Positions 2,344-62,342 of a stretch of 64,000 bases of DNA are shown here, one piece after another; the first letter of the stretch is position 1; each line of letters begins with the position of its first letter. Source of the DNA: Minisyncoccota bacterium (GTDB taxonomy: Bacteria > Patescibacteriota > Minisyncoccia > Phycocordibacterales > UBA6899); contig DATEZQ010000003.1 of NCBI GenBank assembly GCA_035583355.1, forward strand, positions 1,844 to 65,843, in the 5' to 3' direction. The notes below the pieces were generated by a model that saw only the letters and a list, made by a program, of their open reading frames with translations, searched no databases and was not told the origin of the DNA. The position numbers and the translations under genes are program-made.

Positions 2344-5300
2344 TTACATTTTTTCGAGTGCAAATTCAAGCTTTCCCTCAAGTAGCGCTACCGACTGCGT
2401 CGTTTCGCCTTCCTTGATGTCGAGGATGGTCGCCTCAACCGAGAGCATTTCCTGCATGTCGAGCGCAAAAGCCATTGCCTCCTCATTACCTGCGATAAGC
2501 AATCGTGCTGCCTCACCAGGATTGAACCCTGAGCGCTTGCGCTCTTCCTGAATCGCGCGAAGCACGTCACGCATCACTCCCTCGCGCTTAAGCTCTGGAG
2601 TCAAAACAAGATCAAGCTCTACAGCATCAGCGAGAAGGGCTGCGTCATGTGAAACAGTCTTTACATTAAGCTCATCGGCAATGATTGCAGTAAGAGCGGC
2701 GTCCGCAACGAGTGCTTTGTTACCCACATAAAGTGCGGCGAGTGGCTGACGCACCTTGATGCCGTTCTTTGCACGCTGCTCAAGTGCAAGTGTTACCGTC
2801 TTACGCACCGCCTCCATCGTATCGAGCACAGTGTGTAGAGCAACACCAGGCACTGGCCACTGCTCAAGATGCACACTTTCAAGCTTCTTCTCCACAGGAA
2901 GACGCTGATAGAGATCCTCGGCAAGGAATGGAGTGAACGGTGCAAGCAAACGCGAGAGTTGGAATAATATCCAGCCAAGCGTCATCTCTGCAAATGCCCT
3001 ATCTTCTCCCTCTCCCTTCAAGCGATCGCGTGAGCGGCGAAGCCACCATGTCGAAAGATCATCAATCAGTGGCAAGACTTGCTTTGCTGCACGATCAAGC
3101 TCGTTGGTCTCAAGGAAGTGTGTGGCCTCGTTATGCGTCTCATTCCATCGTGCAATGATCCAACGATCAAGTGCATGAGTCGACTTCGGCTGCTCACGGA
3201 GCACCGCCTGTCCCGTAGCATACATCTCATAGAACGAGCGTACATTATCAAGACGTAATGTGAGTTTCTTTGTGATCTCATCAACACCAAGTGTTGAAAA
3301 TTTCAGATCCTCGCCGCGCATCGCAGGCGACGCAACCATATAGAAGCGTAGTGCATCAGCACCATACTTCCCTACGACTTCCATAGGGTCTGGATAATTA
3401 CGTAGCTTCTTGCTCATCTTTTCACCGTTCTCAGCAAGGACAAGACCGTTTACAATCACATTTCGAAATGGCGACTTTCCAAAGAGTCCAATTCCAAGAA
3501 GCAGCATAGAATAGAACCATCCTCTTGTCTGGTCAAGACCCTCGGCGATGAAATGCGCCGGGAAATTATGCAAGAACATCTTTCCTGCATCATCATTCTC
3601 ATTACCACTAAAGTAGTGCTGCGCAAATGGCATTGAGCCAGACTCAAACCAGCAGTCGAACACTTCGGGAATACGCCTCATCTTGCCTCCACAGGCACAG
3701 CTGAAGACCACATCATCAATGTGCGGTCGATGGAGATCAAGCGCGTAGTCAGCATTATGCGGAAGTGGAGCAAACTTCATCTTATGCACCTCAGCATTAA
3801 GGACATAATCATCGTTTGCATTTTTACGCAATCGTATCGTCTCCGCCTCATCTGCGCCACGCGCTACTGCATCAAGCATCCATACACCATACTCGTGTGT
3901 AACAAAAAGAATGTTCTTCCCTTCATACACTGCGTCGGTCGCATAAAATGCCTCTCCAAAGCGACGCTTCATATCACGCAATGATTCACCATTCGGCGCT
4001 GCACGCGCAAACTTTTCCTCAACTGACGGGAACATCGCGCGATACTCATCGACACTGTGACCATTGAGGTCACCTGCATCTACCTCGTGCAGTCGTGCAT
4101 CATAAATGATTTGATCTCGAGGAATACCAACCATATCTGCCGCAATCTCTGCCGTCTCCTTCGTACGCTGCATCGGTGAAGCGATAATGATATCGATCTT
4201 CATCTTCTGTAACTTTTCACCAGCACTCTTCACTTGCTCTATCCCCTTCTTCGTCAGTGGATTAACGTCATCTTCGCGACAGGAAATGATATCCTGCACA
4301 TTTGACTCTGCCTCACCATGGCGAATTGCGAAATAGTGGTTCTTCGGAGGCTGCGCATCACGCAGCTCATCAATATGACCAATGACACGAATAGCATCAC
4401 AGTCCTTACATTTCCATACAGGAATTGCTGCACCCCAATAGCGGCTGCGCGAAATCGCCCAATCGCGTGCTCCCTCAAGCCAATTATGGAAACGGCCGTG
4501 GCCTACAGCATCTGGCACCCAATTGATTTCCTTATTTGCTTCAACAGCCTTCTCTTTAATCTCGCCCACATTCACAAACCATGAAGATGCCGCGTAATTG
4601 ATGAGTGGCCAATCGCAGCGCCAACAATACGGATAGCTGTGAGTCATATTCTCCTTGCTGAAGAAGAGATTTGCATCTTGAAGGAACTTGATGACAGCGA
4701 TGTCGGTGCTGAGTCGTACGCGGTCATCATCGCTCTTTGGTTTCACTGACATTCCCGCAAAACCAGTCACTTCATCCTTAATCGTTCCATCCATGCGCAC
4801 ATGCTGAATGAACGGGAGTTGTTCCCGCTTCCCGAGCTGCATATCATCATCACCAAATGCTGGCGCAATATGCACTATCCCTGTACCCGTATCACTTGCA
4901 ACGAAATCTGCACCATAGACATGCCAACCACGCTCGCGGTTTATGAGCTCAGCGTCATTAGCATAATCCATAAATGGAGGAATATATGCGATTCCAACGA
5001 GCTCTTTACCTGATACTTCTCCGGTCACGACAGCGCTTGGAGCAATACGAGGCAATGTATCCTTCTGTGCAATATATGTTGTCGCATCTCCAGGAAGCGT
5101 AAATCGCACATAAGCAAGATCCACATTGACCGCGAGTGCAACATTTCCCGGCAACGTCCAAGGAGTCGTTGTCCATGCAAGAAGTGCAACATCAGGATTA
5201 TCACGCAACGGAAATTTAAGCGTGACTGAGATATCCTTTACATCCTTATACCCGCCCGCAACCTCTGAGGCAGCGAGTGTCGTCTCACAACGAGGACAAA

Positions 5301-5880
5301 TGTGCATAGACTTGTAGCCCTCATAAATGAGCTTCTTGTCATAGAGTGTTTTGAAGGCCCACCATACACTTGCCATATAGCCAGTATCCATCGTCTTGTA
5401 GGCATGATCCATGTCTACCCAACGACCAACACGTGGTACGATTTCCTTCCATTCTTTGTCATACATCAGCACCGATGCTTCTGCTTTCGCATTAAAGGCA
5501 CCGATACCATATTCCTCGATCTGTCGCTTATGCTCGAGGCCAAGTTCTTGTTCAATGAGATTCTCCACCGGAAGTCCGTGGCAGTCCCAACCCCACACAC
5601 GGCGCACATAGCGTCCACGCATCGTCTGAAAACGAGGAATGACATCCTTGATGGTACCCGCAAGAATATGCCCATAGTGGGGCAAGCCGGTGGCAAATGG
5701 TGGCCCATCGAAAAACACGAACGGCTCATTGTGCGCAGTAGCTTCGAGTGACTTCTTAAAAATACGCTCTTTCGTCCAAAAATCTCCGATACGCACCTCG
5801 CGCTCGGCTAATGTTTCCTTTGAAAGATCGTGTGGCTGCTTTGAATCCATAGTGTTCTTATAGTATAGGAAAATGACCAT
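2344..5880 (-). CDS. ileS: Isoleucyl-tRNA synthetase (eukaryote-like type 2) with an inserted histidine-phosphatase-like domain
   Basis: HIGH region PPFATGLPHYGHIL, WDCHGLP, KMSKS-like EKMSKKLRNYPDP, zinc knuckle CKDC...CACGG, WFESGSMPF. The protein is 1178 aa, against about 1000 aa for a typical IleRS. An extra ~200 aa segment (aa ~510-712) carries RHGEAESN, LTKKGIEQ, IIIASPMQRTKETA and VTHEYG motifs. The likely true start is the Met at 5850 (MDSKQPH). Confidence 0.9.
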   Translation of the reverse strand: MVIFLYYKNTMDSKQPHDLSKETLAEREVRIGDFWTKERIFKKSLEATAHNEPFVFFDGPPFATGLPHYGHILAGTIKDVIPRFQTMRGRYVRRVWGWDCHGLPVENLIEQELGLEHKRQIEEYGIGAFNAKAEASVLMYDKEWKEIVPRVGRWVDMDHAYKTMDTGYMASVWWAFKTLYDKKLIYEGYKSMHICPRCETTLAASEVAGGYKDVKDISVTLKFPLRDNPDVALLAWTTTPWTLPGNVALAVNVDLAYVRFTLPGDATTYIAQKDTLPRIAPSAVVTGEVSGKELVGIAYIPPFMDYANDAELINRERGWHVYGADFVASDTGTGIVHIAPAFGDDDMQLGKREQLPFIQHVRMDGTIKDEVTGFAGMSVKPKSDDDRVRLSTDIAVIKFLQDANLFFSKENMTHSYPYCWRCDWPLINYAASSWFVNVGEIKEKAVEANKEINWVPDAVGHGRFHNWLEGARDWAISRSRYWGAAIPVWKCKDCDAIRVIGHIDELRDAQPPKNHYFAIRHGEAESNVQDIISCREDDVNPLTKKGIEQVKSAGEKLQKMKIDIIIASPMQRTKETAEIAADMVGIPRDQIIYDARLHEVDAGDLNGHSVDEYRAMFPSVEEKFARAAPNGESLRDMKRRFGEAFYATDAVYEGKNILFVTHEYGVWMLDAVARGADEAETIRLRKNANDDYVLNAEVHKMKFAPLPHNADYALDLHRPHIDDVVFSCACGGKMRRIPEVFDCWFESGSMPFAQHYFSGNENDDAGKMFLHNFPAHFIAEGLDQTRGWFYSMLLLGIGLFGKSPFRNVIVNGLVLAENGEKMSKKLRNYPDPMEVVGKYGADALRFYMVASPAMRGEDLKFSTLGVDEITKKLTLRLDNVRSFYEMYATGQAVLREQPKSTHALDRWIIARWNETHNEATHFLETNELDRAAKQVLPLIDDLSTWWLRRSRDRLKGEGEDRAFAEMTLGWILFQLSRLLAPFTPFLAEDLYQRLPVEKKLESVHLEQWPVPGVALHTVLDTMEAVRKTVTLALEQRAKNGIKVRQPLAALYVGNKALVADAALTAIIADELNVKTVSHDAALLADAVELDLVLTPELKREGVMRDVLRAIQEERKRSGFNPGEAARLLIAGNEEAMAFALDMQEMLSVEATILDIKEGETTQSVALLEGKLEFALEKM

Positions 5881-10529: not shown

Positions 10530-10680
10530 TCGCATTTACCCTACCCACACCATGAAACCGCGAGAATTTTTGCTCGCAACAGCCTCGCTGGAGCTTGACG
10601 CGGTACGATGGTACCGCGAGAGCGAAGCGTGAGGCTGGTCCGAGCAAAAAGGCCGCGGCTGTAAGGTCGCGAAACCCGTG
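10530..10680. repeat. Dispersed intergenic repeat, a second copy of the 38905-39110 sequence
   Basis: cgcatttaccctacccacaccatgaaaccgcgagaattt vs ttacgcatttcacccactccacaccatgaaacggcgaggattt at 38905, followed by related GC-rich hairpins (gcggtacgatggtaccgc palindrome). Confidence 0.45.
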
Positions 10681-36262: not shown

Positions 36263-36706
36263 TTACATCTGCGCAGGTACTCCCCCACCCATCTTCTTCC
36301 CCGCCTTAAGGCTTAGAATAAAGATGATCGTATAAAAGAGGAATCCAACTGAACACAATGGCAAACTATATACGAATGCCATGAATCCATCCGAGAAGAG
36401 AATCGGCAATTCTCCTGCAGTAAGATAGCCCGAGAATAATGCGCCAAAAAGTGAAAACCCTGTGACTGCCACCAACAGACCCTTCGTGAATCCATTCTTC
36501 ACTTGTGCCATGATCATGAGCACGGTGAGTACTGCATACACCAGGAAGCCAGTGTAACACGCAGGATAGCCAAGGAAGTATGGACACTGAGAACCAAAAG
36601 CGCATGTTGCGGTAAAGATCTTCACTCCCGAAAGATATCCCGAGAAAGCGAGACCTGCGAGAATAAAACCGAAAATTGTTTTAAACAATGTGGATGTTTT
36701 TTCCAT
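36263..36706 (-). CDS. Polytopic membrane protein with conserved Cys pairs, possibly VKOR/DoxX-like thiol-oxidoreductase; tentative
   Basis: About 4 TM helices, CAFGSQC and PACYTG Cys motifs in loop/TM boundaries. Start called at the internal Met MEKTSTL. Confidence 0.4.
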   Translation of the reverse strand: MEKTSTLFKTIFGFILAGLAFSGYLSGVKIFTATCAFGSQCPYFLGYPACYTGFLVYAVLTVLMIMAQVKNGFTKGLLVAVTGFSLFGALFSGYLTAGELPILFSDGFMAFVYSLPLCSVGFLFYTIIFILSLKAGKKMGGGVPAQM

Positions 36707-38904: not shown

Positions 38905-39110
38905 TACGCATTTCACCCACTCCACACCATGAAACGGCGAGGATTTCACTTGTGTACCTTAATGGAACGGCGAGAGATTTTTCGCAAGGTTGGCATGTCG
39001 GAGCGAGGACCGCAGTGAGACGTATCGGGCATACGATGAACGCGGACCAGAGCGAGACATGCCAAGATTGCGGAAAATATCCCCCGCTACTACTATGCCC
39101 ACAAGAAACA
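38905..39110. repeat. Dispersed intergenic repeat (copy 2 of the 10530-10680 family)
   Basis: ttacgcatttcacccactccacaccatgaaacggcgaggattt plus downstream degenerate similarity (tacgatg...cgcgg...agagcga) to the 10530-10680 copy. Confidence 0.45.
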
Positions 39111-39117
39111 GCAGAAT

Positions 39118-39163
39118 AAAAAAATAAATCCCATAAGGGATTTATTTTTTTATTCTGCTGTTT
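39118..39163. terminator. Long perfect palindrome / bidirectional terminator downstream of rplS
   Basis: gaaacagcagaataaaaaaataaatccc-ataa-gggatttatttttttattctgctgtttc. Confidence 0.6.
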
Positions 39164-39563
39164 CGAAGTCTGTAGATGAACCTCCACCAATAATTGTCTG
39201 CTTCATCTTACGACGCACATCACGCACTGCCTTCTCACGTACGTAGTAAAGCTTTGCGCGACGCACTGTTGAGCGCTTCACGAGCTCAATCTCGTTGATT
39301 GATGGTGAGAAGAGTGGGAACACGCGCTCTACACCAACACCAGATGCGACACGGCGCACAGTGAATGATGCACCTGCAGTATTGCCGTGCTTCGTTGAGA
39401 GCACAAGACCCTCAAATGCCTGCAAACGGTACTTCTGCTTTGCCTTATCTTCAAGGACCTTCACCCAAACACGTACCGTATCACCGGCAGTAAGTTCGAG
39501 CTTCTTGCGAGACTCCATGTTGACTGGGGTCGTTGTAATTTTGCTGATCAATTCCGTATTCAT
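39150..39563 (-). CDS. rplS: 50S ribosomal protein L19
   Basis: [29 protein letters not shown] signature. Confidence 0.9.
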
Positions 39564-44412: not shown

Positions 44413-44753
44413 AGATTGTCTCTCCGCTAGGTAATCGAAAGAACTTTTCTCGCGCACCCCAGAGGAATATAGGGCCCTTGCTAGGATATCTCACGTCGCC
44501 TGGCTCGCGCACCCTACAGGGTCCCGCACGGCCAGGCTCGTCTATTTCATTACATGAACGGTACACCTTTTGGATCTTTTGTTTCAATGACTCACAAAAG
44601 TTCTCAAAAGGTCTTGCGCTCTCGCTCCCATATGAATGGGACCCATGAGCGAGAGCTCACCCACGGTTCTCGACGCTCGAAGACTCACTGCTCTCCTCCG
44701 CAGGAGAGGTGCCCCTCTCCTGACACCTCTCCGTTCGATTCTTAGCAGAGGGA
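44413..44753 (-). repeat. tRNA-associated structured element, Family 2, downstream of tRNA-Arg(TCT) (copy E4)
   Basis: Near-perfect inverted copy of the tRNA 3' end (ccgttcgattcttagcagaggga, 44731-44753); core motifs ggagagcag, cgtcgagaaccgtgggt and gtgcgcgag shared with the Ser and Arg(GCG) copies; terminal direct copy ctccgctaggtaatcgaaag (44413-44432). Confidence 0.6.
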
Positions 44754-44754
44754 A

Positions 44755-44787
44755 AGAAAAAGCGCCAAGGCGCTTTTTCTTTAATGG
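44755..44787. terminator. Terminator hairpin for tRNA-Arg(TCT)
   Basis: aaaaagcgcc-aag-gcgcttttt. Confidence 0.6.
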
Positions 44788-44859
44788 TCCCTCTGCTAAG
44801 AATCGAACTTAGATCTAGAACTTAGAAGGTTCTTGTTCTATCCATTGAACTACAGAGAG
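44788..44859 (-). tRNA. tRNA-Arg (anticodon TCT)
   Basis: Acceptor CTCTCTG/CAGAGGG (C1:G72), D-arm GTTC-AATGGATA-GAAC, anticodon stem AGAAC/GTTCT, loop CTTCTAA, T-arm CTAAG-TTCGATT-CTTAG, discriminator A. Confidence 0.8.
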
Positions 44860-45003: not shown

Positions 45004-45046
45004 AAAAAGACCACCCCAAAGCAAACGCTTTGGGGTGGTTTCTTTT
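45004..45046 (+). terminator. Terminator hairpin for tRNA-Val
   Basis: aaaaagaccaccccaaagc-aaac-gctttggggtggtttcttttt. Confidence 0.65.
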
Positions 45047-45270
45047 TGCCCGCCTTGAGGGACTTGAAAGGCGGAGGCTGCGAAGCCAGCCGCTAAGGCT
45101 TCCCAGCCGAAGCGGCTGTAGCCGAGCCGTGGCGACGACCACTTAGTCTTACGGCGTCTCAAAGAGCGCCCGTAAGGCTTTGTGAGTCGTGCCAAGTCCC
45201 AGACTCCGATTCAGTTCGCTCTTGCGCTCAATCAAACAAAAACCCAGAGGGTTTTGTTTGCTTGTGTATT
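45047..45270 (+). repeat. tRNA-associated structured element, Family 1, downstream of tRNA-Val (copy E5) plus one unit of the terminator-like extension module
   Basis: Inverted copy tgcccgccttgagggacttgaa (45047-45068); core aggcggaggctgcgaagccagccgctaaggcttcccagccgaagcggctgtagccgagcc; ttgtgagtcgtgccaagtccc (the GTGAC motif plus terminal direct copy, 45182-45202); then gcgctcaatcaaacaaaaacccagagggttttgtttgc. Confidence 0.6.
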
Positions 45271-49511: not shown

Positions 49512-51017
49512 ATGAATGAACAGGAAAAAATAGGTATTTTCATCCGAAGTATTCGCGAAGCCCGAGGGATGACACAGGCTGATTTCGCAAAGGCACTGAA
49601 GACTAGCCAAAGTGCTGTCGCACGTATGGAAAAAGGCGGACAGAATTTTACCACAAGCGCGCTTGAGAATATCAGCAATATTCTTGGACGAAAGATTATT
49701 GAAGTGACCGAATCACTCGACTTCCGCATCGAGGGCGGACACAAGCTCCATGGAAGCGTTGCAACGAATGCATCGAAAAACGGAGCGATGGGACTACTCT
49801 CTGCAGCGCTTCTGAATCGTGCACCAACGATACTCCACGGTATCCCGCGCATAGAAGAAGCGAATCGCTACATCGAATTCCTCACAAGCTTAGGCATTAA
49901 GATTGAGTGGATCGGACCAAACAGTATTCGTTTCACTCCTCCAAAGAAACTTGCACTTGAAAAAATGGACAAGGAGGCGGCAAGCCGCATCCGTTCCTCG
50001 ATTATGCTCATCGGCTCGCTTATACATTTAGAGCCAAGCTTCGCCCTCCCCCACGCTGGTGGATGCAAAATGGGCAATCGCACCATCGCCGCACATCGCC
50101 ACGGACTCGAAGAACTCGGAGCAAAGATAGTCACCAAGGATACCCATTACGCCATCACCGCAAAGAAGCTCCACCCTGCGGACATCGTGCTTTACGAGGC
50201 AAGTGATACCGCTGCAGAAAATCTCCTTATTGCCGCAGCACGTATTCCAGGCAAGACCACTATCTCATTTGCAACAAGCAACTACATGGTCCAAGAAGTT
50301 TGCTTCTTTCTCGAGAAGCTCGGGGTAAAGATCGAAGGTATCGGGACCAGCACCCTCACGGTGCATGGAGTGAAAGAAATTAATACTCCAATCGAATACC
50401 ACAACAGCGAAGACCCTATTGAGTCGATGATGTTCCTCACCGCGGCTATCGTCACGAATTCGAAACTCACCGTCACGCGTTGCCCTATCGACTTTCTTGC
50501 GCTTGAAATGCAAAAGCTCAAAGCGATGGGACTCAAATACAGCACTTCAAAAGTCTATCTCGCACACAACGGACACACGAAACTTGTTGATATCACCGTG
50601 CATCCAAGCAAACTCGTAACTGCGGGAGACAAAATTCATGCACAGCCCTACCCTGGTATCAACACTGATAACCTCCCCTTCTTCGTTCCCATTGCAACAC
50701 AGGCGCTTGGTACGACACTTATCCATGATTGGATGTGGGAGAACCGTGCGATCTACTTCACCGAGCTCAACCGCCTCGGCGCGAACATCACTCTCGCTGA
50801 CCCTCATCGTGCATTTGTGACAGGTCCGACCAAGCTCAAAGCAGCACAGATTGTCTGCCCTCCCGCATTGCGCCCTGCGATGATTATTCTCATCGCAATG
50901 CTCGCCGCAGAGGGTACTTCAATCCTCCGCAATGTTTACTCCATCAATCGTGGATACGAGGAGATTGCAAAGCGACTCAATACTATCGGGGCAAAAATTG
51001 AGGTCATCCATAATTAA
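49512..51017 (+). CDS. murA: UDP-N-acetylglucosamine 1-carboxyvinyltransferase with N-terminal XRE-family HTH domain fusion
   Basis: N-terminal ~70 aa IGIFIRSIREARGMTQADFAKALKTSQSAVARMEKG (Cro/C1-type HTH), then canonical MurA with active-site Cys in HAGGCKMGNRTI and a full EPSP-synthase-fold double domain; 501 aa vs about 420 aa typical. Confidence 0.9.
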   Translation: MNEQEKIGIFIRSIREARGMTQADFAKALKTSQSAVARMEKGGQNFTTSALENISNILGRKIIEVTESLDFRIEGGHKLHGSVATNASKNGAMGLLSAALLNRAPTILHGIPRIEEANRYIEFLTSLGIKIEWIGPNSIRFTPPKKLALEKMDKEAASRIRSSIMLIGSLIHLEPSFALPHAGGCKMGNRTIAAHRHGLEELGAKIVTKDTHYAITAKKLHPADIVLYEASDTAAENLLIAAARIPGKTTISFATSNYMVQEVCFFLEKLGVKIEGIGTSTLTVHGVKEINTPIEYHNSEDPIESMMFLTAAIVTNSKLTVTRCPIDFLALEMQKLKAMGLKYSTSKVYLAHNGHTKLVDITVHPSKLVTAGDKIHAQPYPGINTDNLPFFVPIATQALGTTLIHDWMWENRAIYFTELNRLGANITLADPHRAFVTGPTKLKAAQIVCPPALRPAMIILIAMLAAEGTSILRNVYSINRGYEEIAKRLNTIGAKIEVIHN

Positions 51018-52396: not shown

Positions 52397-52484
52397 GGAG
52401 ATGTGGCTGAGCGGTTTAAGGCACCTGTCTTGAAAACAGACGCTCCTACGGGGGCCGTGAGTTCGAATCTCACCATCTCCGCCA
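52397..52484 (+). tRNA. tRNA-Ser (anticodon TGA), type II, CCA encoded
   Basis: GGAGATG acceptor, GCT/AGC 3 bp D-stem, anticodon loop CTTGAAA flanked by CCTGT/ACAGA stem (one mismatch), long variable arm, T-arm GTGAG-TTCGAAT-CTCAC, 3' CATCTCCGCCA. Confidence 0.85.
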
Positions 52485-52520
52485 AAACAAAAAGCGAACA
52501 CGAAAGTGTTCGTCTTTTTG
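52485..52520 (+). terminator. Terminator hairpin for tRNA-Ser
   Basis: aaagcgaacac-gaaa-gtgttcgcttttt. Confidence 0.65.
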
Positions 52521-52523
52521 TTA

Positions 52524-52711
52524 TTTGGCGGAGATGGTGAGATTCGAACGGATAGGGGTCGGGAAAGGAGGCCCTTTCCCGTCTAGGAGAGCAGGACTTC
52601 CTCTTCCCTGAAGAGGAAGTCCGTCGAGAACCGTGGGTTCTCGAAACCGAAGGCCGCGCGAGGCTCCTCCGGAGTGCGCGAGCCGTAGGTTGTTCAATTC
52701 TCCCATTTCCG
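52524..52711 (+). repeat. tRNA-associated structured element, Family 2, downstream of tRNA-Ser (copy E6)
   Basis: Exact inverted copy of the tRNA-Ser 3' end tggcggagatggtgagattcgaac (52524-52547); core ggtcgggaaaggaggccctttcccgtctaggagagcagg, perfect hairpin ggacttcctcttc-cctg-aagaggaagtcc, cgagaaccgtgggttctcg, gccgcgcgaggctcctccggagtgcgcgag; degenerate direct copy gttgttcaattctcccatttccgc (52688-52711). Confidence 0.65.
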
Positions 52712-52802
52712 CGCTCAAAACGCTTTGGGATTAACTAAAATTTATGAATTGAGTTTCCCGGAAACAGAAGATTTATCTGCTATTTTTTGTTAAGATATAA
52801 TC

Positions 52803-53522
52803 ATGGAAGAGAAAAGAACTCTTGATGAAATAATAGAAAATATTCCAATCATGAAGGAACTAGAATTAAATTCTAGAAATTGTGGGAAGAGTAGATATCC
52901 CAGAAGTGCCTATTCTCTAACAACATATTCTATAAAATTGCAATATCTCAATAATTCCATTAATTATTGTAAAGATATCGGAGATTACTATTCTCTTTGT
53001 GTACTTTTTAGGTCATTACTTGAACACTATTTCAGGCATCTATATATCTATACTAGGGCTTTAAAAGAAAATAGTGATGATGTTGGAATTGAATACTACG
53101 GAAAATTAAACGGTCACGAAGATTTATGCTCCTTAAGGAGTAATATCTCACTGAATACAAAACTGACTGGAATAAAATCTATTTTAAGTTTGGGTGGTGA
53201 ACAAAATAAAAGTTTAGATGATATAGCTCAAAACTTTAAAATTAATAATATTCTTTCTTATATAAACGAAAACATTGGGGAAAATAGTGAGCTACGGGAA
53301 ACATCAAAAGATTCCTTAAATAGATATTCTCGGCTGTACTCAACATTATCATCATTTGTTCATGGTGGCCCTTACGCTGAAAAGTACATGGGGTTGTATT
53401 CAAAAAATAATACTAGTAAAGATAAGGATATAGAATTTCTTTCTGATGAAACAAATTCATTAACAAACCAAGCAAGGGAAAATACATCTCTATTTATAGA
53501 GATAACAACAGAAAAAACTTAG
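52803..53522 (+). CDS. Hypothetical protein encoded in a strongly AT-rich islet downstream of tRNA-Ser
   Basis: 239 aa ORF rich in N/K/I/Y/S with no recognised motif; the flanking sequence 52730-53650 is visibly the most AT-rich stretch of the window. Confidence 0.45.
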   Translation: MEEKRTLDEIIENIPIMKELELNSRNCGKSRYPRSAYSLTTYSIKLQYLNNSINYCKDIGDYYSLCVLFRSLLEHYFRHLYIYTRALKENSDDVGIEYYGKLNGHEDLCSLRSNISLNTKLTGIKSILSLGGEQNKSLDDIAQNFKINNILSYINENIGENSELRETSKDSLNRYSRLYSTLSSFVHGGPYAEKYMGLYSKNNTSKDKDIEFLSDETNSLTNQARENTSLFIEITTEKT

Positions 53523-56720: not shown

Positions 56721-56792
56721 GTCCTCGTCGTTCAATGGATAGGACAAGAGTTTGCGGAACTCTAAATGTAGGTTCGATTCCTACCGAGGGCA
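56721..56792 (+). tRNA. tRNA-Arg (anticodon read as GCG)
   Basis: Acceptor GTCCTCG/CGAGGGC, D-arm GTTC-AATGGATA-GGAC, anticodon stem AGAGT/ACTCT, loop TTGCGGA, T-arm GTAGG-TTCGATT-CCTAC, discriminator A; anticodon identity should be confirmed with tRNAscan-SE. Confidence 0.7.
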
Positions 56793-56834
56793 CAAAATAG
56801 CAAAACCAGCGCGAAAGCGCTGGTTTTGCTATTT
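56793..56834 (+). terminator. Terminator hairpin for tRNA-Arg(GCG)
   Basis: agcaaaaccagcgc-gaaa-gcgctggttttgct. Confidence 0.65.
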
Positions 56835-57046
56835 GCCCTCGGCAGGAATCGAACAGGAAGGGGTCGGGAAACGGGAGTTTCCCGTCTAGGAGAGCAGGTC
56901 TTCCTTTTCCTAAAGGAAGACCGTCGAGAACCGTGGGTTCTCGAAGAACTTTGCCGCGCGAGGCTCCTCCGGAGTGCGCGAGCAAAGTTCGCGAGATATC
57001 CTACTCAATTTCCCTATTCCCTATACCCTATTCCCTACCGGAAAAG
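56835..57046 (+). repeat. tRNA-associated structured element, Family 2, downstream of tRNA-Arg(GCG) (copy E7)
   Basis: Inverted copy tgccctcggcaggaatcgaac (56835-56856, 1 mismatch to the tRNA 3' end); core nearly identical to the Ser copy (gggtcgggaaacgggagtttcccgtctaggagagcagg, ggtcttccttttcc-taa-aggaagacc, cgagaaccgtgggttctcg, gccgcgcgaggctcctccggagtgcgcgag); ccctattccctataccctattccctacc repeats and the direct copy attccctaccgg (57029-57046). Confidence 0.65.
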
Positions 57047-61842: not shown

Positions 61843-61914
61843 CCCTACACCTACGTGTTCAGGAAGTAAAGCCTATTTGAATTTACAGCTTTCTGTGTTA
61901 GTATCCCTGTACAT

Positions 61915-61933
61915 CCCCCTATAGCTCAGTCGG
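61915..61933 (+). pseudogene. Orphan 19 nt duplicate of the tRNA-Lys 5' end (acceptor 5' strand plus D-arm start), not a functional tRNA
   Basis: ccccctatagctcagtcgg is identical to 62010-62028; the downstream sequence lacks a T-arm and diverges. Confidence 0.5.
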
Positions 61934-62009
61934 CAATAAGAAATAGCCAGCAACCTGGTTGTTGCACCGAATGAACAGTTATGGAAGGTGTGCGAAAACA
62001 ATTAAATAT

Positions 62010-62082
62010 CCCCCTATAGCTCAGTCGGTAGAGCAGCAACCTTTTAAGTTGACGGTCGTTGGTTCGATTCCAACTGGGGGGA
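62010..62082 (+). tRNA. tRNA-Lys (anticodon TTT)
   Basis: Acceptor CCCCCTA/TGGGGGG (C1:G72), D-arm GCTC-AGTCGGTA-GAGC, anticodon stem GCAAC/GTTGA (one mismatch), loop CTTTTAA, T-arm GTTGG-TTCGATT-CCAAC, discriminator A. Confidence 0.8.
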
Positions 62083-62088
62083 CAATGA

Positions 62089-62128
62089 CATGCCCAAGAC
62101 GCGAAAGCATCTTGGGCATTTGTCATTG
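62089..62128 (+). terminator. Terminator-like long hairpin after tRNA-Lys
   Basis: caatgacatgcccaaga-cgcgaaagca-tcttgggcatttgtcattg. Confidence 0.55.
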
Positions 62129-62289
62129 CCTGCCCCAGTTGGAATCAAAGGGCGGAGGCCGCGAAGCCGGCCGCTGAGGCTCCCAGCCGAAGCGGCCGTG
62201 GCCGAGCCCTGGCCCTACTCGCACACAGTATTCTGCGAGCAGCGCGGAGCAGAATACTGATGTGACGAAGGGGCGATTCCAACTGGGTA
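62129..62289 (+). repeat. tRNA-associated structured element, Family 1, downstream of tRNA-Lys (copy E8)
   Basis: Inverted copy ctgccccagttggaatc (62129-62145); core ggcggaggccgcgaagccggccgctgaggctcccagccgaagcggccgtggccgagcc; hairpin cagtattctgc-gagcagcgcggag-cagaatactg; tgtgacg motif then the direct copy gcgattccaactgggtag (62272-62289). Confidence 0.65.
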
Positions 62290-62342
62290 GCTAAGAATGT
62301 ATTCAAAAACCGCAATGCTTACACATTGTGGTTTTCTGGAAG

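Follow-up and report, generated by a model that had tools for sequence, protein, structure and literature searches.

All eight tRNA genes in the window, the 64-kb stretch of contig analyzed here, are followed by a highly structured, non-coding unit of about 0.2-0.4 kb. In the sense of the tRNA, the order is the tRNA gene, a terminator spacer (X), an inverted copy (I) of tRNA nt 53-73, a scaffold belonging to one of two families, and a direct copy (D) of the same tRNA segment. This anatomy was observed directly at every tRNA gene in the window, and the X-I-scaffold-D layout is also found at most tRNAs of related contigs. The host is a tiny-genome (CPR/Paceibacteria) bacterium, and the units look like an undescribed family of small tRNA-end insertion elements. 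A literature search found nothing describing such elements.

Our best reading, held tentatively and at somewhat less than even confidence, is that the units are non-autonomous elements that insert specifically at tRNA 3' ends and that would be active as a folded single strand. With similar reserve, we regard the unit at tRNA-Ser as possibly one member of a lineage-wide family in Paceibacteria/Kaiserbacteria-like CPR bacteria. The initial annotation of this locus had recognized the structured module and its complementary ends; it missed the direct repeat, the occupancy of 8/8 tRNA genes, and the turnover and stacking of units.

Anatomy of the units

The tRNA-Ser unit carries a Family-2 scaffold with four hairpins, P1-P4, and has the following parts.

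52397..52484, + strand: tRNA-Ser(TGA) (ARAGORN; Rfam tRNA, 55.7 bits)
52461-52484, + strand: copied "core" of tRNA-Ser, its last 24 nt, G53 through CCA
52485..52525, no strand: spacer X, with an A-tract, an 8-bp hairpin (52494-52513) and a T-tract (terminator scan)
52526..52549, + strand: I (anticore), TGGCGGAGATGGTGAGATTCGAAC, inverted copy of tRNA-Ser nt 53-76, 24/24 reverse complement of 52461-52484
52550..52691, + strand: Family-2 scaffold, covariation in P1, P2, P3 and P4; joiners GGAUAGGGGUC before P1 and UCUAGGAGAGCAG between P1 and P2
52560-52581: P1
52594-52622: P2, a 13-bp polypyrimidine/polypurine hairpin
52624-52644: P3, UCGAGAACC-GUG-GGUUCUCGA
52645-52691: P4, with a conserved G·U and a bulged A
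52692..52713, + strand: D, degenerate direct copy, GTTCAATTCTCCCATTTCCGCG vs GTTCGAATCTCACCATCTCCGC, which pairs with I and closes the element

The Ser spacer scores as an intrinsic terminator on both strands, and the inverted arms in its region reach 33 nt with the A/T tracts included. The two ends of the element, GCGGAAATGG and CCATCTCCGC, are indeed complementary, as reported previously, since the far one (52692-52713) repeats the tRNA 3' end in direct orientation and degenerate form. The Ser D is decayed, and the I/D closing stem retains 18/23 pairs; in the orthologous L013 unit, D matches at 19/21 positions and is followed by a terminator. Within 5 kb downstream of tRNA-Ser, we detected neither a further D nor a larger flanked island.

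Two tRNA-Arg genes also carry Family-2 units.

56721..56793, + strand: tRNA-Arg(GCG), CCA not encoded
56794..56833, no strand: Arg-GCG spacer X, a perfect 18-bp hairpin including A/T tracts (inverted-repeat scan)
56834..56854, + strand: Arg-GCG I, TGCCCTCGGCAGGAATCGAAC, 20/21
56855..56990, + strand: Arg-GCG Family-2 scaffold, 182.7 bits, 95% identity to the Ser copy
56991..57046, + strand: Arg-GCG degenerate D region, with GCGAGATATCCTAC, a short CCCTATT repeat and TTCCCTACCGG
44785..44859, - strand: tRNA-Arg(TCT)
44754..44784, no strand: Arg-TCT spacer X, a terminator hairpin
44733..44753, - strand: Arg-TCT I, 21/21
44439..44732, - strand: Arg-TCT long-type Family-2 scaffold, 85.7 bits
44418..44438, - strand: Arg-TCT D, TCGATTACCTAGCGGAGAGAC

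Every motif that the initial annotation quoted was found where it had been placed. The near-identity that it proposed for the Ser and Arg-GCG copies was borne out, the scaffolds (52545-52690 and 56855-56988) being identical at 123/129 ungapped columns, with a compensated A-T to T-A change in the Arg-GCG P2. The two scaffolds are this similar (95%) though they are flanked by unrelated X, I and D. The C·A mismatch in the Arg-GCG I is identical in L001 and L011, two of the related loci. Within the Arg-GCG D region, GCGAGATATCCTAC combines the end motif of this subtype with the 3' strand of the T stem.

The Arg-TCT copy had been described as the common core with inserts. It has P1, GGAGAGCAG and CGTCGAGAACCGTGGGT in common with the Ser and Arg-GCG copies and contains extra material, in the order P1, GGAGAGCAG, a short P2, GTCGAGAACCGTGGGT, an insert of about 150 nt, and two P4-like units, the first of which is followed by its own D-like motif, GTGAGATATCCTAGC. 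This long type of Family-2 scaffold is also present in L006 and L008. The Arg-TCT I ends at the discriminator, although the tRNA-Arg(TCT) gene encodes CCA. In its acceptor part, the Arg-TCT D agrees with tRNA-Arg-TCT from the relative L015 and not with that of the window, whereas I matches the present tRNA.

The remaining five units have Family-1 or Family-1-like scaffolds.

45004..45260, + strand: tRNA-Val unit, Family-1 scaffold, with X, I (45041-45068), scaffold, partial D, tail and terminator
62084..62300, + strand: tRNA-Lys unit, Family 1, I at 62133-62149, D being CGATTCCAACTGGG
35933..36270, + strand: tRNA-Leu(CAG) unit, Family-1-like, I imperfect, D 18/18, then a second terminator
35465..35674, - strand: tRNA-Leu(GAG) unit, Family 1, I 17/21, D 17/18
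32420..32815, - strand: tRNA-His unit, Family-1-like, with a 58-nt hairpin insertion that splits I

Across units, D begins at a T-loop position that depends on the family and extends slightly beyond the tRNA 3' end. It starts at nt 53 or about 61 in the Family-2 subtypes and at nt 55/56 in Family 1, and the duplicated segment varies by family from 13 to 24 or more nt. Several copies have a perfect D (the examples are LeuCAG, 18/18; LeuGAG, 17/18; L001; and L011), which is sometimes followed by an apparent original terminator. The terminal repeats I and D are locus-specific, being derived from the local tRNA, and an inverted match of 21-24 nt within 100 nt is far above chance. In an inverted-repeat scan, the core, X and I form a single long quasi-palindrome.

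The copied segment follows the tRNA gene and not the mature tRNA, as the Arg copies have no TGG opposite CCA. We therefore rejected I as a retroelement primer-binding site: the Arg-GCG and Arg-TCT copies have no TGG opposite the mature-tRNA CCA, so priming from the tRNA 3' end would be impossible. A simple target-site duplication of palindromic TTCGAA was also rejected, because D has a genuine sense T loop of 7 nt, to which I is complementary throughout. An intron in which tRNA nt 1-53 would be spliced to D fails as a general model, given that the Ser D is decayed, too much so to serve as a tRNA exon, and that the terminator precedes the element. Coding capacity was rejected as well, because variation in the helices takes the form of compensatory changes and of indels whose lengths are not divisible by three.

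A selected, strand-specific structure

The structure of the Family-2 scaffold is under selection and is strand-specific. The Ser element folds far better than shuffled sequence (z = -7.5 in the tRNA sense, -7.1 on the opposite strand), and the tRNA-sense fold is about 9 kcal/mol better than that of the opposite strand. In 17 Family-2 copies from the window and related genomes, 91.7% of cells are paired, versus 76% in shuffles, and slid controls give 40-56%. Changes on both sides occur at 27/42 pairs in these copies, a count that was reached by 0/500 shuffles. Strong covariation is present in all four hairpins, P1-P4. The initial annotation had argued from compensatory stem changes for a conserved multi-hairpin module tied to tRNA genes. 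Covariation and the occupancy of all eight window tRNAs uphold that view, and the compensatory substitutions imply that a folded single-stranded form is under selection. Outside P2, the scaffold is 95-100% conserved across loci and genomes.

When read on the tRNA-sense strand, noncanonical pairs are mostly wobble and purine-purine pairs: G·U/U·G outnumber A·C/C·A by 24 to 8, and G·A/A·G outnumber pyrimidine-pyrimidine pairs by 22 to 5. A MAFFT-only alignment also favors the tRNA-sense strand, 11 vs 2. All 16 of 16 Family-2 copies that adjoin a tRNA are co-oriented with it.

These data bear on the model put forward originally, in which the opposite strand encodes an RNA of about 190 nt that ends at a bidirectional terminator and presents a minihelix end to RNase P, RNase Z or the CCA-adding enzyme. 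X does score as a terminator on both strands, the RNA would end in GTTCGAATCTCACCATCTCCGCCA paired with its own 5' end, and the opposite strand folds well (z = -7.1). However, wobble pairs, purine-purine pairs and the better fold all lie on the other strand, and the conserved G·U would become a C·A mismatch in such an RNA. The supposed tRNA-like 3' terminus does not amount to a T arm: G53 alone remains of the T-stem 5' strand, the Ser copy having ATCCG instead of GTGAG. The Arg copies, moreover, lack CCA. The minihelix is instead the inverted copy I paired with the direct copy D of the tRNA 3' segment. It is consequently present on either strand and gives no specific support to an opposite-strand RNA. 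In addition, D, which would be the minihelix 5' strand, is decayed or truncated in many copies, no promoter was detected, and neither ARAGORN nor Rfam sees a tRNA-like gene. We consider this model quite improbable.

Covariation also speaks to whether the units are a non-functional by-product, formed when replication switches templates at palindromes of the terminator and T arm, and filled with passive GC-rich repeat DNA. The long core-X-I quasi-palindrome is what such a process might leave. Quasi-palindrome correction, a form of template-switch mutagenesis, would keep I matched to the tRNA without selection. In contrast, the scaffold is conserved, carries compensatory double changes at 27/42 pairs and shows strand bias; the junction positions are family-specific; and T-loop copies lie on both sides of the scaffold where a microhomology switch would leave one. 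As an account of the scaffold, the by-product reading is largely refuted by the covariation, and overall we judge it highly improbable.

Stacking, turnover and an empty site in relatives

Units are stacked and replaced in related genomes. Tandem stacks comprise Family 1 plus Family 2 in L001, and Family 1, a linker and Family 2 in L015 and L006. L013 has Family 1 plus a truncated Family 2, and the Arg-TCT locus of L015 has repeated P3-P4-D' units. Between genomes whose proteins are about 88% identical, orthologous tRNAs differ in the family or subtype of scaffold that they carry. Vestiges are present in L017, and L017 and L011 include tRNAs that have no scaffold; the tRNA-Pro of L011 is followed by a plain terminator without a unit and represents an empty site. 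An ectopic copy in L003 retains only 9 nt of tRNA-Gln. A distant scaffold from a Parcubacteria MAG (about 30 bits to model R1) is associated with a tandem duplication of tRNA-Gln from the anticodon loop to the 3' end, and this anticodon-loop version of the duplication was found in L002 and L005. The more distant syntenic loci L018-L020 have no tRNAs.

The inverted copy changes with its tRNA. I and the tRNA co-vary between orthologs of the Val and Arg-TCT loci, and I tracks isoacceptor or acceptor changes. In L011, the near core and D are local, and I is foreign-like, apparently carried over from an Arg-GCG-type site. The X and I of tRNA-Val are conserved out to a 70%-identity relative that has no scaffold, a hint of a possible independent role for core-X-I.

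Some of these observations would suit a host non-coding RNA. Read-through of X would transcribe I-scaffold-D as a 3' extension of the tRNA, with similarity across loci kept by gene conversion. The 21-bp I/D stem or the core-X-I hairpin of about 40 bp would then be an RNase III processing stem, or an RNase P/Z minihelix. The freed scaffold RNA would act in tRNA metabolism or mark read-through precursors for destruction, and Families 1 and 2 would be interchangeable classes. The tRNA-sense fold is RNA-like in its conserved G·U, bulged A and conserved unpaired joiners. The 95-100% conservation outside P2, the presence of a co-oriented unit at every window tRNA and the covariation of I with the tRNA at the Val and Arg-TCT loci fit this reading too, and in a modeled read-through transcript I captures the 3' part of the tRNA in a long hairpin. 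However, a strong terminator separates tRNA and element, no promoter was detected, no Rfam family corresponds, and decay of D often breaks the closing stem, as in Ser (18/23). Truncated, stacked and partially duplicated units, scaffold types that vary at orthologous tRNAs, tRNAs without scaffold in L017 and L011, and an ectopic copy without a tRNA are behaviors of selfish repeats rather than of an essential partner RNA. A host RNA, the main rival to insertion elements, is an unlikely explanation in our view.

Searches for associated genes and known RNAs

Neither the 64-kb window nor the sequence beside any copy yielded an integrase, transposase, HUH nuclease or reverse transcriptase. Pfam and PHROGs scans of 44 window and neighboring ORFs revealed only housekeeping or unknown proteins, and the element-adjoining ORF239, ORF690 and three L015 ORFs gave no recombinase-like signal in either. 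Searches of phage, plasmid and IMG/VR collections returned no matches; no related IS turned up in them, in the window or at the loci, and no autonomous relative was found. The initial annotation had held that residence of the core, in unrelated genomes, within a known mobile element with protein-coding capacity would count against its proposal; neither a known mobile element nor coding capacity was found for the core.

A scan of the whole window with Rfam 15 at gathering scores detected only tRNAs, and scans of two loci at E <= 10 added only generic long-hairpin matches to miRNA models. ARAGORN and Rfam identified only the true tRNAs, with no tRNA-like or tmRNA-like gene in the element, and a promoter scan detected none for the element. 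Group I, group II and other Rfam intron models gave no matches, and the tRNA is complete upstream of the terminator.

The searches also concern an RNA-guided system, in which the scaffold would be a protein-binding guide scaffold and I a guide of about 21 nt to the sense strand of the tRNA gene or to the tRNA. By analogy with omega-RNAs, bridge RNAs and CAST homing guides that target tRNA genes, a trans-encoded recombinase, nuclease or dead-nuclease regulator might be sent to the tRNA 3' end, for example in homing. The division into a constant scaffold and a variable segment of 21-24 nt that matches the neighboring tRNA gene, not the mature tRNA, has this character. So do the swapping of scaffolds between different "guides," the tracking of isoacceptor and acceptor changes by I, and the apparent carry-over of I from an Arg-GCG-type site in L011. 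Against this, I is fully complementary to D in the same molecule, so that the guide would be occluded, and the target lies right beside it. The neighborhoods of the copies contain no TnpB, IscB, Cas, IS110 or other effector gene. At E <= 10, no Rfam match to HEARO or IS605-type RNAs (including IS605-orfB) was obtained, although members of the OMEGA/IS200/IS605/IS110 class would be expected to give one, and no conserved PAM/TAM-like flank was seen. Such a system appears improbable.

Comparison with known systems and a possible mechanism

Elements that integrate into tDNA classically cross over at one of two sublocations, the T loop or the anticodon loop, and a regenerated target with a displaced fragment is their hallmark (PMC4383910). 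The displaced-fragment feature is present here as D in LeuCAG, LeuGAG, L001, L011 and L013, and in degenerate form in Ser. In such islands the element also supplies the proximal 3' part of the tRNA; the differing acceptor version in the window's Arg-TCT D is consistent with this, whereas in L011 the near core and D are both local and I is the foreign-like part. Like islands and prophages with tyrosine integrases (Islander type), the units have an intact proximal tRNA and a direct repeat of the tRNA that extends to the 3' end from the T loop or, in the T3Sed10 relative, from the anticodon loop, and repeated insertion gives tandem accretion. Unlike such islands, they are only 0.2-0.4 kb, non-coding and without a nearby integrase; they add an inverted tRNA copy and a covarying scaffold, and they occupy essentially every window tRNA.

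Integron attC sites and the CTX-phage attP(+) share with the units a strand-specific structure, conserved in place of duplex sequence, in which an inverted pair of sites folds to mimic a duplex target. The integrated CTX-type product has a site, a loop and an inverted site at one junction and a second site at the other (PMC3442271, PMC5027507), an arrangement that mirrors core-X-I ... D. However, the units lack R''/R' core sites (RYYYAAC/GTTRRRY) in attC topology, an IntI gene and a dif-like site. GAAC...GTTC motifs lie at inner, not outer, ends and match the consensus at only 5/7 positions. Moreover, the loop of the unit is a conserved multi-helix module whereas theirs is variable, and its cargo would be only a terminator.

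MITEs, REP/BIME/REPIN, Correia and ERIC sequences and IS200/IS605 PATEs resemble the units in being short, multi-copy, non-coding, GC-rich and hairpin-forming, with terminal inverted repeats (here I and D), terminator neighbors and assembly breaks. In the units, by contrast, each locus has terminal repeats of its own, copied from the tRNA beside it. Insertion occurs only at the 3' ends of tRNAs, in a single orientation, with no identified parental IS/RAYT or fixed target-site duplication.

The tmRNA tRNA-like domain, YrlA Y RNA, viral TLS and mascRNA have paired ends that correspond, as in the units, to acceptor and T-stem strands of a specific tRNA. The units differ in that the hairpin has no T arm or T loop, CCA is inconsistent, the 3' copy is often decayed, and there is one per tRNA gene, not one per genome. 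Intervening sequences of 23S rRNA and archaeal non-canonical tRNA introns are likewise sporadic structured insertions in a helix or loop of a stable RNA. Their flanking complementarity is a processing stem, and their positions include T and anticodon loops; here, however, a terminator follows an intact tRNA gene, and the mature tRNA does not include the element.

For insertion elements specific for tRNA 3' ends, the following course can be proposed. D would be what insertion into a tRNA gene classically leaves behind when the 3' part of the gene is regenerated or duplicated. Repeated insertions would stack units, distal units would decay, and scaffolds would be exchanged between loci. The active form would be a folded single strand of tRNA-sense polarity, either ssDNA or RNA from tRNA-promoter read-through. 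Pairing of I with D or with the tRNA core would place the junction at the base of a stem beside the scaffold junction, perhaps much as integron attC sites or the CTX-phage attP(+) present theirs, and a putative enzyme would act in trans. Mobility, the single-strand intermediate and the recombination point are what we infer in this scheme.

Several facts count against insertion elements. None of the models tried explains simply how I matches each different tRNA, or how identical scaffolds come to lie in differing I/X/D frames. Insertion at the T loop should bring in a foreign acceptor strand. No recombinase-type gene is nearby, and no autonomous relative was found. No excision product, transcript or empty/filled polymorphism within a single population was seen. 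A host function would be just as compatible with the near-complete occupancy and the strongly conserved joiner sequences.

Biological implications

The units may instead represent a new class altogether, a proposition that we find doubtful yet worth stating: one tRNA-coupled structured RNA or element per tRNA gene, with antisense and sense copies of the tRNA 3' end around a catalytic or protein-binding scaffold, recognizing the tRNA gene or the tRNA by 21-nt pairing. In one version, the tRNA T loop would serve as the junction of a protein-light, RNA-guided element for homing or recombination. In another, the unit would be a partner RNA for each tRNA that controls the maturation or turnover of that tRNA.

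If the units are host RNAs, a dedicated structured partner RNA for every tRNA would constitute a new layer of tRNA biology. If they are mobile, they would be the first described non-coding elements to colonize essentially every tRNA gene of a bacterium and would carry a locus-matched inverted copy of their target. This implies either an unrecognized insertion chemistry at the T or anticodon loop or an unusually efficient re-matching to new targets. Several hundred structured bases would have been added per tRNA in genomes noted for extreme reduction. Under either reading, Patescibacteria genomes and metatranscriptomes can readily be surveyed with the Family-2 covariance model.

Mobile elements of this kind would also explain assembly breaks at tRNA genes in CPR genomes. 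Short-read contigs of close relatives stop at the boundary between tRNA-Ser and its element, as a multi-copy repeat would predict, and contigs L021-L024, from very close strains, extend no further than the tRNA.

Structured elements at the 3' ends of tRNA genes

The modules that follow tRNA genes in this genome belong to a family of structured elements, undescribed and spread across the lineage, that are coupled to the 3' ends of tRNA genes. The tRNA-Ser locus of the window has the following parts:

52397-52484, tRNA-Ser(TGA)
52494-52513, X, composed of A-tract, hairpin, and T-tract, with an intrinsic-terminator score on either strand
52526-52549, I, a perfect 24-nt reverse complement of the last 24 nt of tRNA-Ser, from G53 (T loop) through CCA
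52692-52713, D, GTTCAATTCTCCCATTTCCGCG, a decayed direct copy of the tRNA-Ser 3' segment GTTCGAATCTCACCATCTCCGC

The order of the unit in tRNA sense is therefore tRNA, X, I, scaffold, D. The segment after I is GC-rich (0.585, versus 0.474 for the whole window) and contains every motif quoted in the initial annotation. The ends described there as roughly complementary do pair, as I with D; beyond this complementarity, the far end repeats the tRNA 3' segment directly, in decayed form.

Family-2 scaffolds (helices P1-P4) are present at the Ser, Arg-GCG, and Arg-TCT loci. The Ser and Arg-GCG scaffolds are nearly identical, as first noticed (123 of 129 ungapped columns), while their X, I, and D segments are mutually unrelated, each matching its own tRNA. 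Scaffolds 95% identical amid unrelated flanks could reflect cassette exchange at inverted T-loop-derived ends, or gene conversion. The Arg-TCT copy (minus strand) shares its 5' half with the other two and then carries ~150 nt of inserted material, again as noted earlier. Its 3' end has two P4-like units, the first leading to its own D-like motif and the second to D.

The tRNA-Arg-GCG gene lacks an encoded CCA, and its I lacks TGG. The tRNA-Arg-TCT gene encodes CCA, and its I ends at the discriminator. The inverted copy mirrors the tRNA gene rather than the mature tRNA, which excludes a retroviral-type primer-binding site as a reading of I.

Occupancy of tRNA genes in the window

Each of the eight tRNAs in the window has its own 3' end repeated in inverted form 31-104 nt downstream (at least 15 of 21 matches, where chance gives ~11-12), and a structured module comes after the repeat. 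Family-1-type scaffolds, found at Val, Lys, Leu-GAG, Leu-CAG, and His, likewise fold into multiple helices, which are closed where the T-loop portions of I and D pair. D is reported as perfect at both Leu loci (Leu-CAG 18/18, Leu-GAG 17/18), and at Leu-CAG a second terminator follows it. The tRNA-coupled units are a genome-wide system.

Three further observations concern individual loci:

61913-61933 and 62008-62028, 21-nt perfect direct repeat ATCCCCCTATAGCTCAGTCGG of the tRNA-Lys 5' end, 95 nt upstream of the gene
32700-32790 (minus), after tRNA-His, a 58-nt GC-rich hairpin GGTCGCCCCGAGTGGCC...GGCCACTCGGAGGCGA that splits the inverted tRNA-His 3' copy
45195-45260 and 35330-35470 (minus), "tail" module GAGTCGTGC-CAAGTCCC-GACTCC ... 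GCGCTCAATCAAAC plus terminator, common to the Val and Leu-GAG units and also found after tRNA-Val in a groundwater contig (L013)

The tRNA-Lys repeat resembles the footprint of a duplication on the 5' (D-loop) side, a mirror of the 3'-side events. The hairpin at tRNA-His is a nested insertion inside I. The presence of a Val-type T-arm fragment in the Leu-GAG tail suggests transfer from one tRNA locus to another.

Relatives and covariation

Protein neighbours place the organism among Paceibacteria/Kaiserbacteria-like CPR. Pattern scans for the Family-2 core hit three MAGs and four metagenome contigs. Most of these cores follow a tRNA (Arg-GCG, Gln, Pro, Glu, Met, or Arg-CCG) with the layout seen in the window, and three loci (L003, L004, L012) have the core with no adjacent tRNA. 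No Rfam family matches the element, no similar sequence was found in phage, plasmid, or IMG/VR collections, and our literature search found no paper describing such elements. They clearly fall outside every family tested.

A Family-2 covariance model, R1, recovers 17 strong copies, and all 16 that adjoin a tRNA share its orientation. In the R1 alignment, 91.7% of cells are paired, compared with 76% after shuffling and 40-56% with slid partners. Both sides change in 27 of 42 pairs, and no shuffle reached the covariation score. The compensatory stem changes proposed from the window's copies are therefore strongly borne out in the 17-copy alignment. P3 is fixed in the first eight sequences, and a variant subtype carries three double substitutions (UCGAGAACC/GGUUCUCGA to UUAGGAACC/GGUUCCUAA). 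Sequence itself is conserved in the joiners GGAAAGGGGUC and GUNUAGGAGAGCAG and in the P3 loop. This covariation contradicts the idea that the units are a passive palindrome by-product, which we regard as highly improbable.

The folded strand

Read in tRNA sense, G·U/U·G oppositions number 24 versus 8 A·C/C·A, and G·A/A·G oppositions 22 versus 5 pyrimidine-pyrimidine. One G·U is kept in 11 of 15 copies and would be a C·A mismatch on the opposite strand. The G·U-type versus A·C-type asymmetry is also seen in a MAFFT-only alignment (11 versus 2) and in Family 1 (~14 versus 6). For the Ser copy, folding is 9 kcal/mol more favourable on the sense strand. Thus, the structure appears to belong to the tRNA-sense strand, as RNA or single-stranded DNA.

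The initial annotation had proposed an opposite-strand RNA of ~190 nt with a minihelix-like end. Its observation was confirmed and extended and its structural reading stands in part, but the strand and the "tRNA-like terminus" are probably wrong: non-Watson-Crick bias and stability favour the other strand, the T stem is missing, and CCA is inconsistent. Such an RNA is quite improbable.

A host noncoding RNA that read-through would produce and cleavage at the I/D stem would release agrees with the strand assignment, the RNA-like features, and the full tRNA occupancy. It accounts poorly for the debris-like loci described below, and we consider it rather unlikely. Between tRNA and element lies a strong terminator, and nothing promoter-like was detected. 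When a read-through transcript is modelled, I traps the tRNA's own 3' part in a ~40-bp hairpin.

Behaviour across related genomes

Orthologous regions were compared in L013 (neighbouring exonuclease 88% identical), L015 and L016 (SKS1.bin43-like genomes, 87%), and L017 (a 70% relative). After tRNA-Ser, the window has X, I, a Family-2 scaffold, and D. L013 has another X, a Family-1 scaffold, a linker, and a Family-2 scaffold reduced to its P4 end, in which the GCCGTAGGTT stem is the same as in the window; D (19/21) and a terminator follow. L015 and L016 have Family 1, a linker, and a complete Family-2 scaffold of a different subtype.

At tRNA-Arg-TCT, the Family-2 scaffold is long in the window, short in L013, and a vestige in L017; L015 has a variant plus tandem partial P3-P4-D' units. 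I is perfect to the local tRNA in the window, L013, and L015 despite differing acceptor stems, and the window's D keeps the L015-type acceptor. At tRNA-Val, the orthology of X and I can be recognised across all four genomes, and I tracks two tRNA substitutions (nt 57 and nt 67). Scaffold subtype varies there, and L017 lacks both scaffold and D. I might match its tRNA because it arrived together with the proximal core, through quasi-palindrome conversion across X, or by selection.

In other genomes, the L011 tRNA-Pro is followed by a plain terminator alone, an empty site. The L011 Arg-CCG unit has a local and perfect D and an I resembling the Arg-GCG type. L003 carries tRNA-Gln-specific I and D with only the last 9 nt of that tRNA upstream, and L001 and L006 contain tandem stacks of Family-1 and Family-2 units. 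Short-read contigs of the closest strains (L021-L024) run out at the tRNA-Ser locus or a short way upstream of it, as a repeat would cause. The elements probably introduce breaks at tRNA genes when CPR genomes are assembled.

Immediately beyond the tRNA-Ser unit, gene content differs between close relatives, forming a variable islet in which no mobility genes could be recognised:

window 52803-53522, a 239-aa ORF
L015 6175-8851, three unknown ORFs (also in L016)
L013 8722-9300, almost nothing

A Parcubacteria MAG has a smaller scaffold after tRNA-Gln that scores ~30 bits against R1:

L002 4229-4402, distant scaffold
L005 3087-3440, distant scaffold

Here, I is 12 nt, complementary to the anticodon-loop region, and varies with the isoacceptor, CTG or TTG; D spans tRNA-Gln from its anticodon loop to its 3' end. 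The units are stacked, one of them at the T loop. An inverted Family-2-like module lies directly after the distant scaffold. T loop and anticodon loop are classical crossover positions of tRNA-gene-integrating elements, whose hallmark is a regenerated gene with a displaced 3' fragment (PMC4383910).

Interpretation

D starts within a tRNA loop at a point particular to the family, units stack with the distal ones decayed, truncated remnants occur, close genomes carry different families at one tRNA, and an empty site and an ectopic copy exist. Jointly, these five features are how insertion elements behave, and not how an essential partner RNA would. A scaffold that is conserved, covarying, and strand-specific implies a part for a folded single strand in the life cycle of the element. 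Mechanistically, the closest analogues are integron attC and CTX-phage attP(+), in which an inverted pair of site copies folds into a mimic of the duplex target; after integration, an inverted site lies beside one junction (PMC5027507, PMC3442271).

We therefore rank first, though tentatively, non-autonomous insertion elements specific for tRNA 3' ends whose active form is a folded single strand. A real gap in this model is that neither the window nor the surroundings of any copy yielded a recombinase, nuclease, or RT. A guide-RNA reading would suit the design of constant scaffold and variable match, yet any effector gene is missing and the "guide" is base-paired to D; we judge it improbable. 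The elements are most economically filed among site-specific insertion elements, pending an enzyme and an intermediate.

Other features

Additional features were observed in the window and a relative:

2344-5880 (minus), isoleucyl/class-I tRNA synthetase of 1178 aa, interrupted at residues 518-684 by an inserted histidine-phosphatase (His_Phos_1) domain
49512-51017, N-terminal Cro/C1-type HTH domain on MurA (EPSP_synthase fold), a fusion kept in all relatives fetched
10535-10569 and 38912-38946, 35-nt motif TTYACCC..CCACACCATGAAAC.GCGAG.ATTT, with inverted repeats after each copy; a possible leader or regulatory element shared by the two sites
39105-39164, perfect 28-bp palindrome with a 4-nt loop (GAAACAGCAGAATAAAAAAATAAATCCC/...), an unusual length for a terminator
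L017 9594-9983, 23S-rRNA-IVS-protein/bAvd-like four-helix-bundle gene between ruvX and the exonuclease gene, only in this 70% relative
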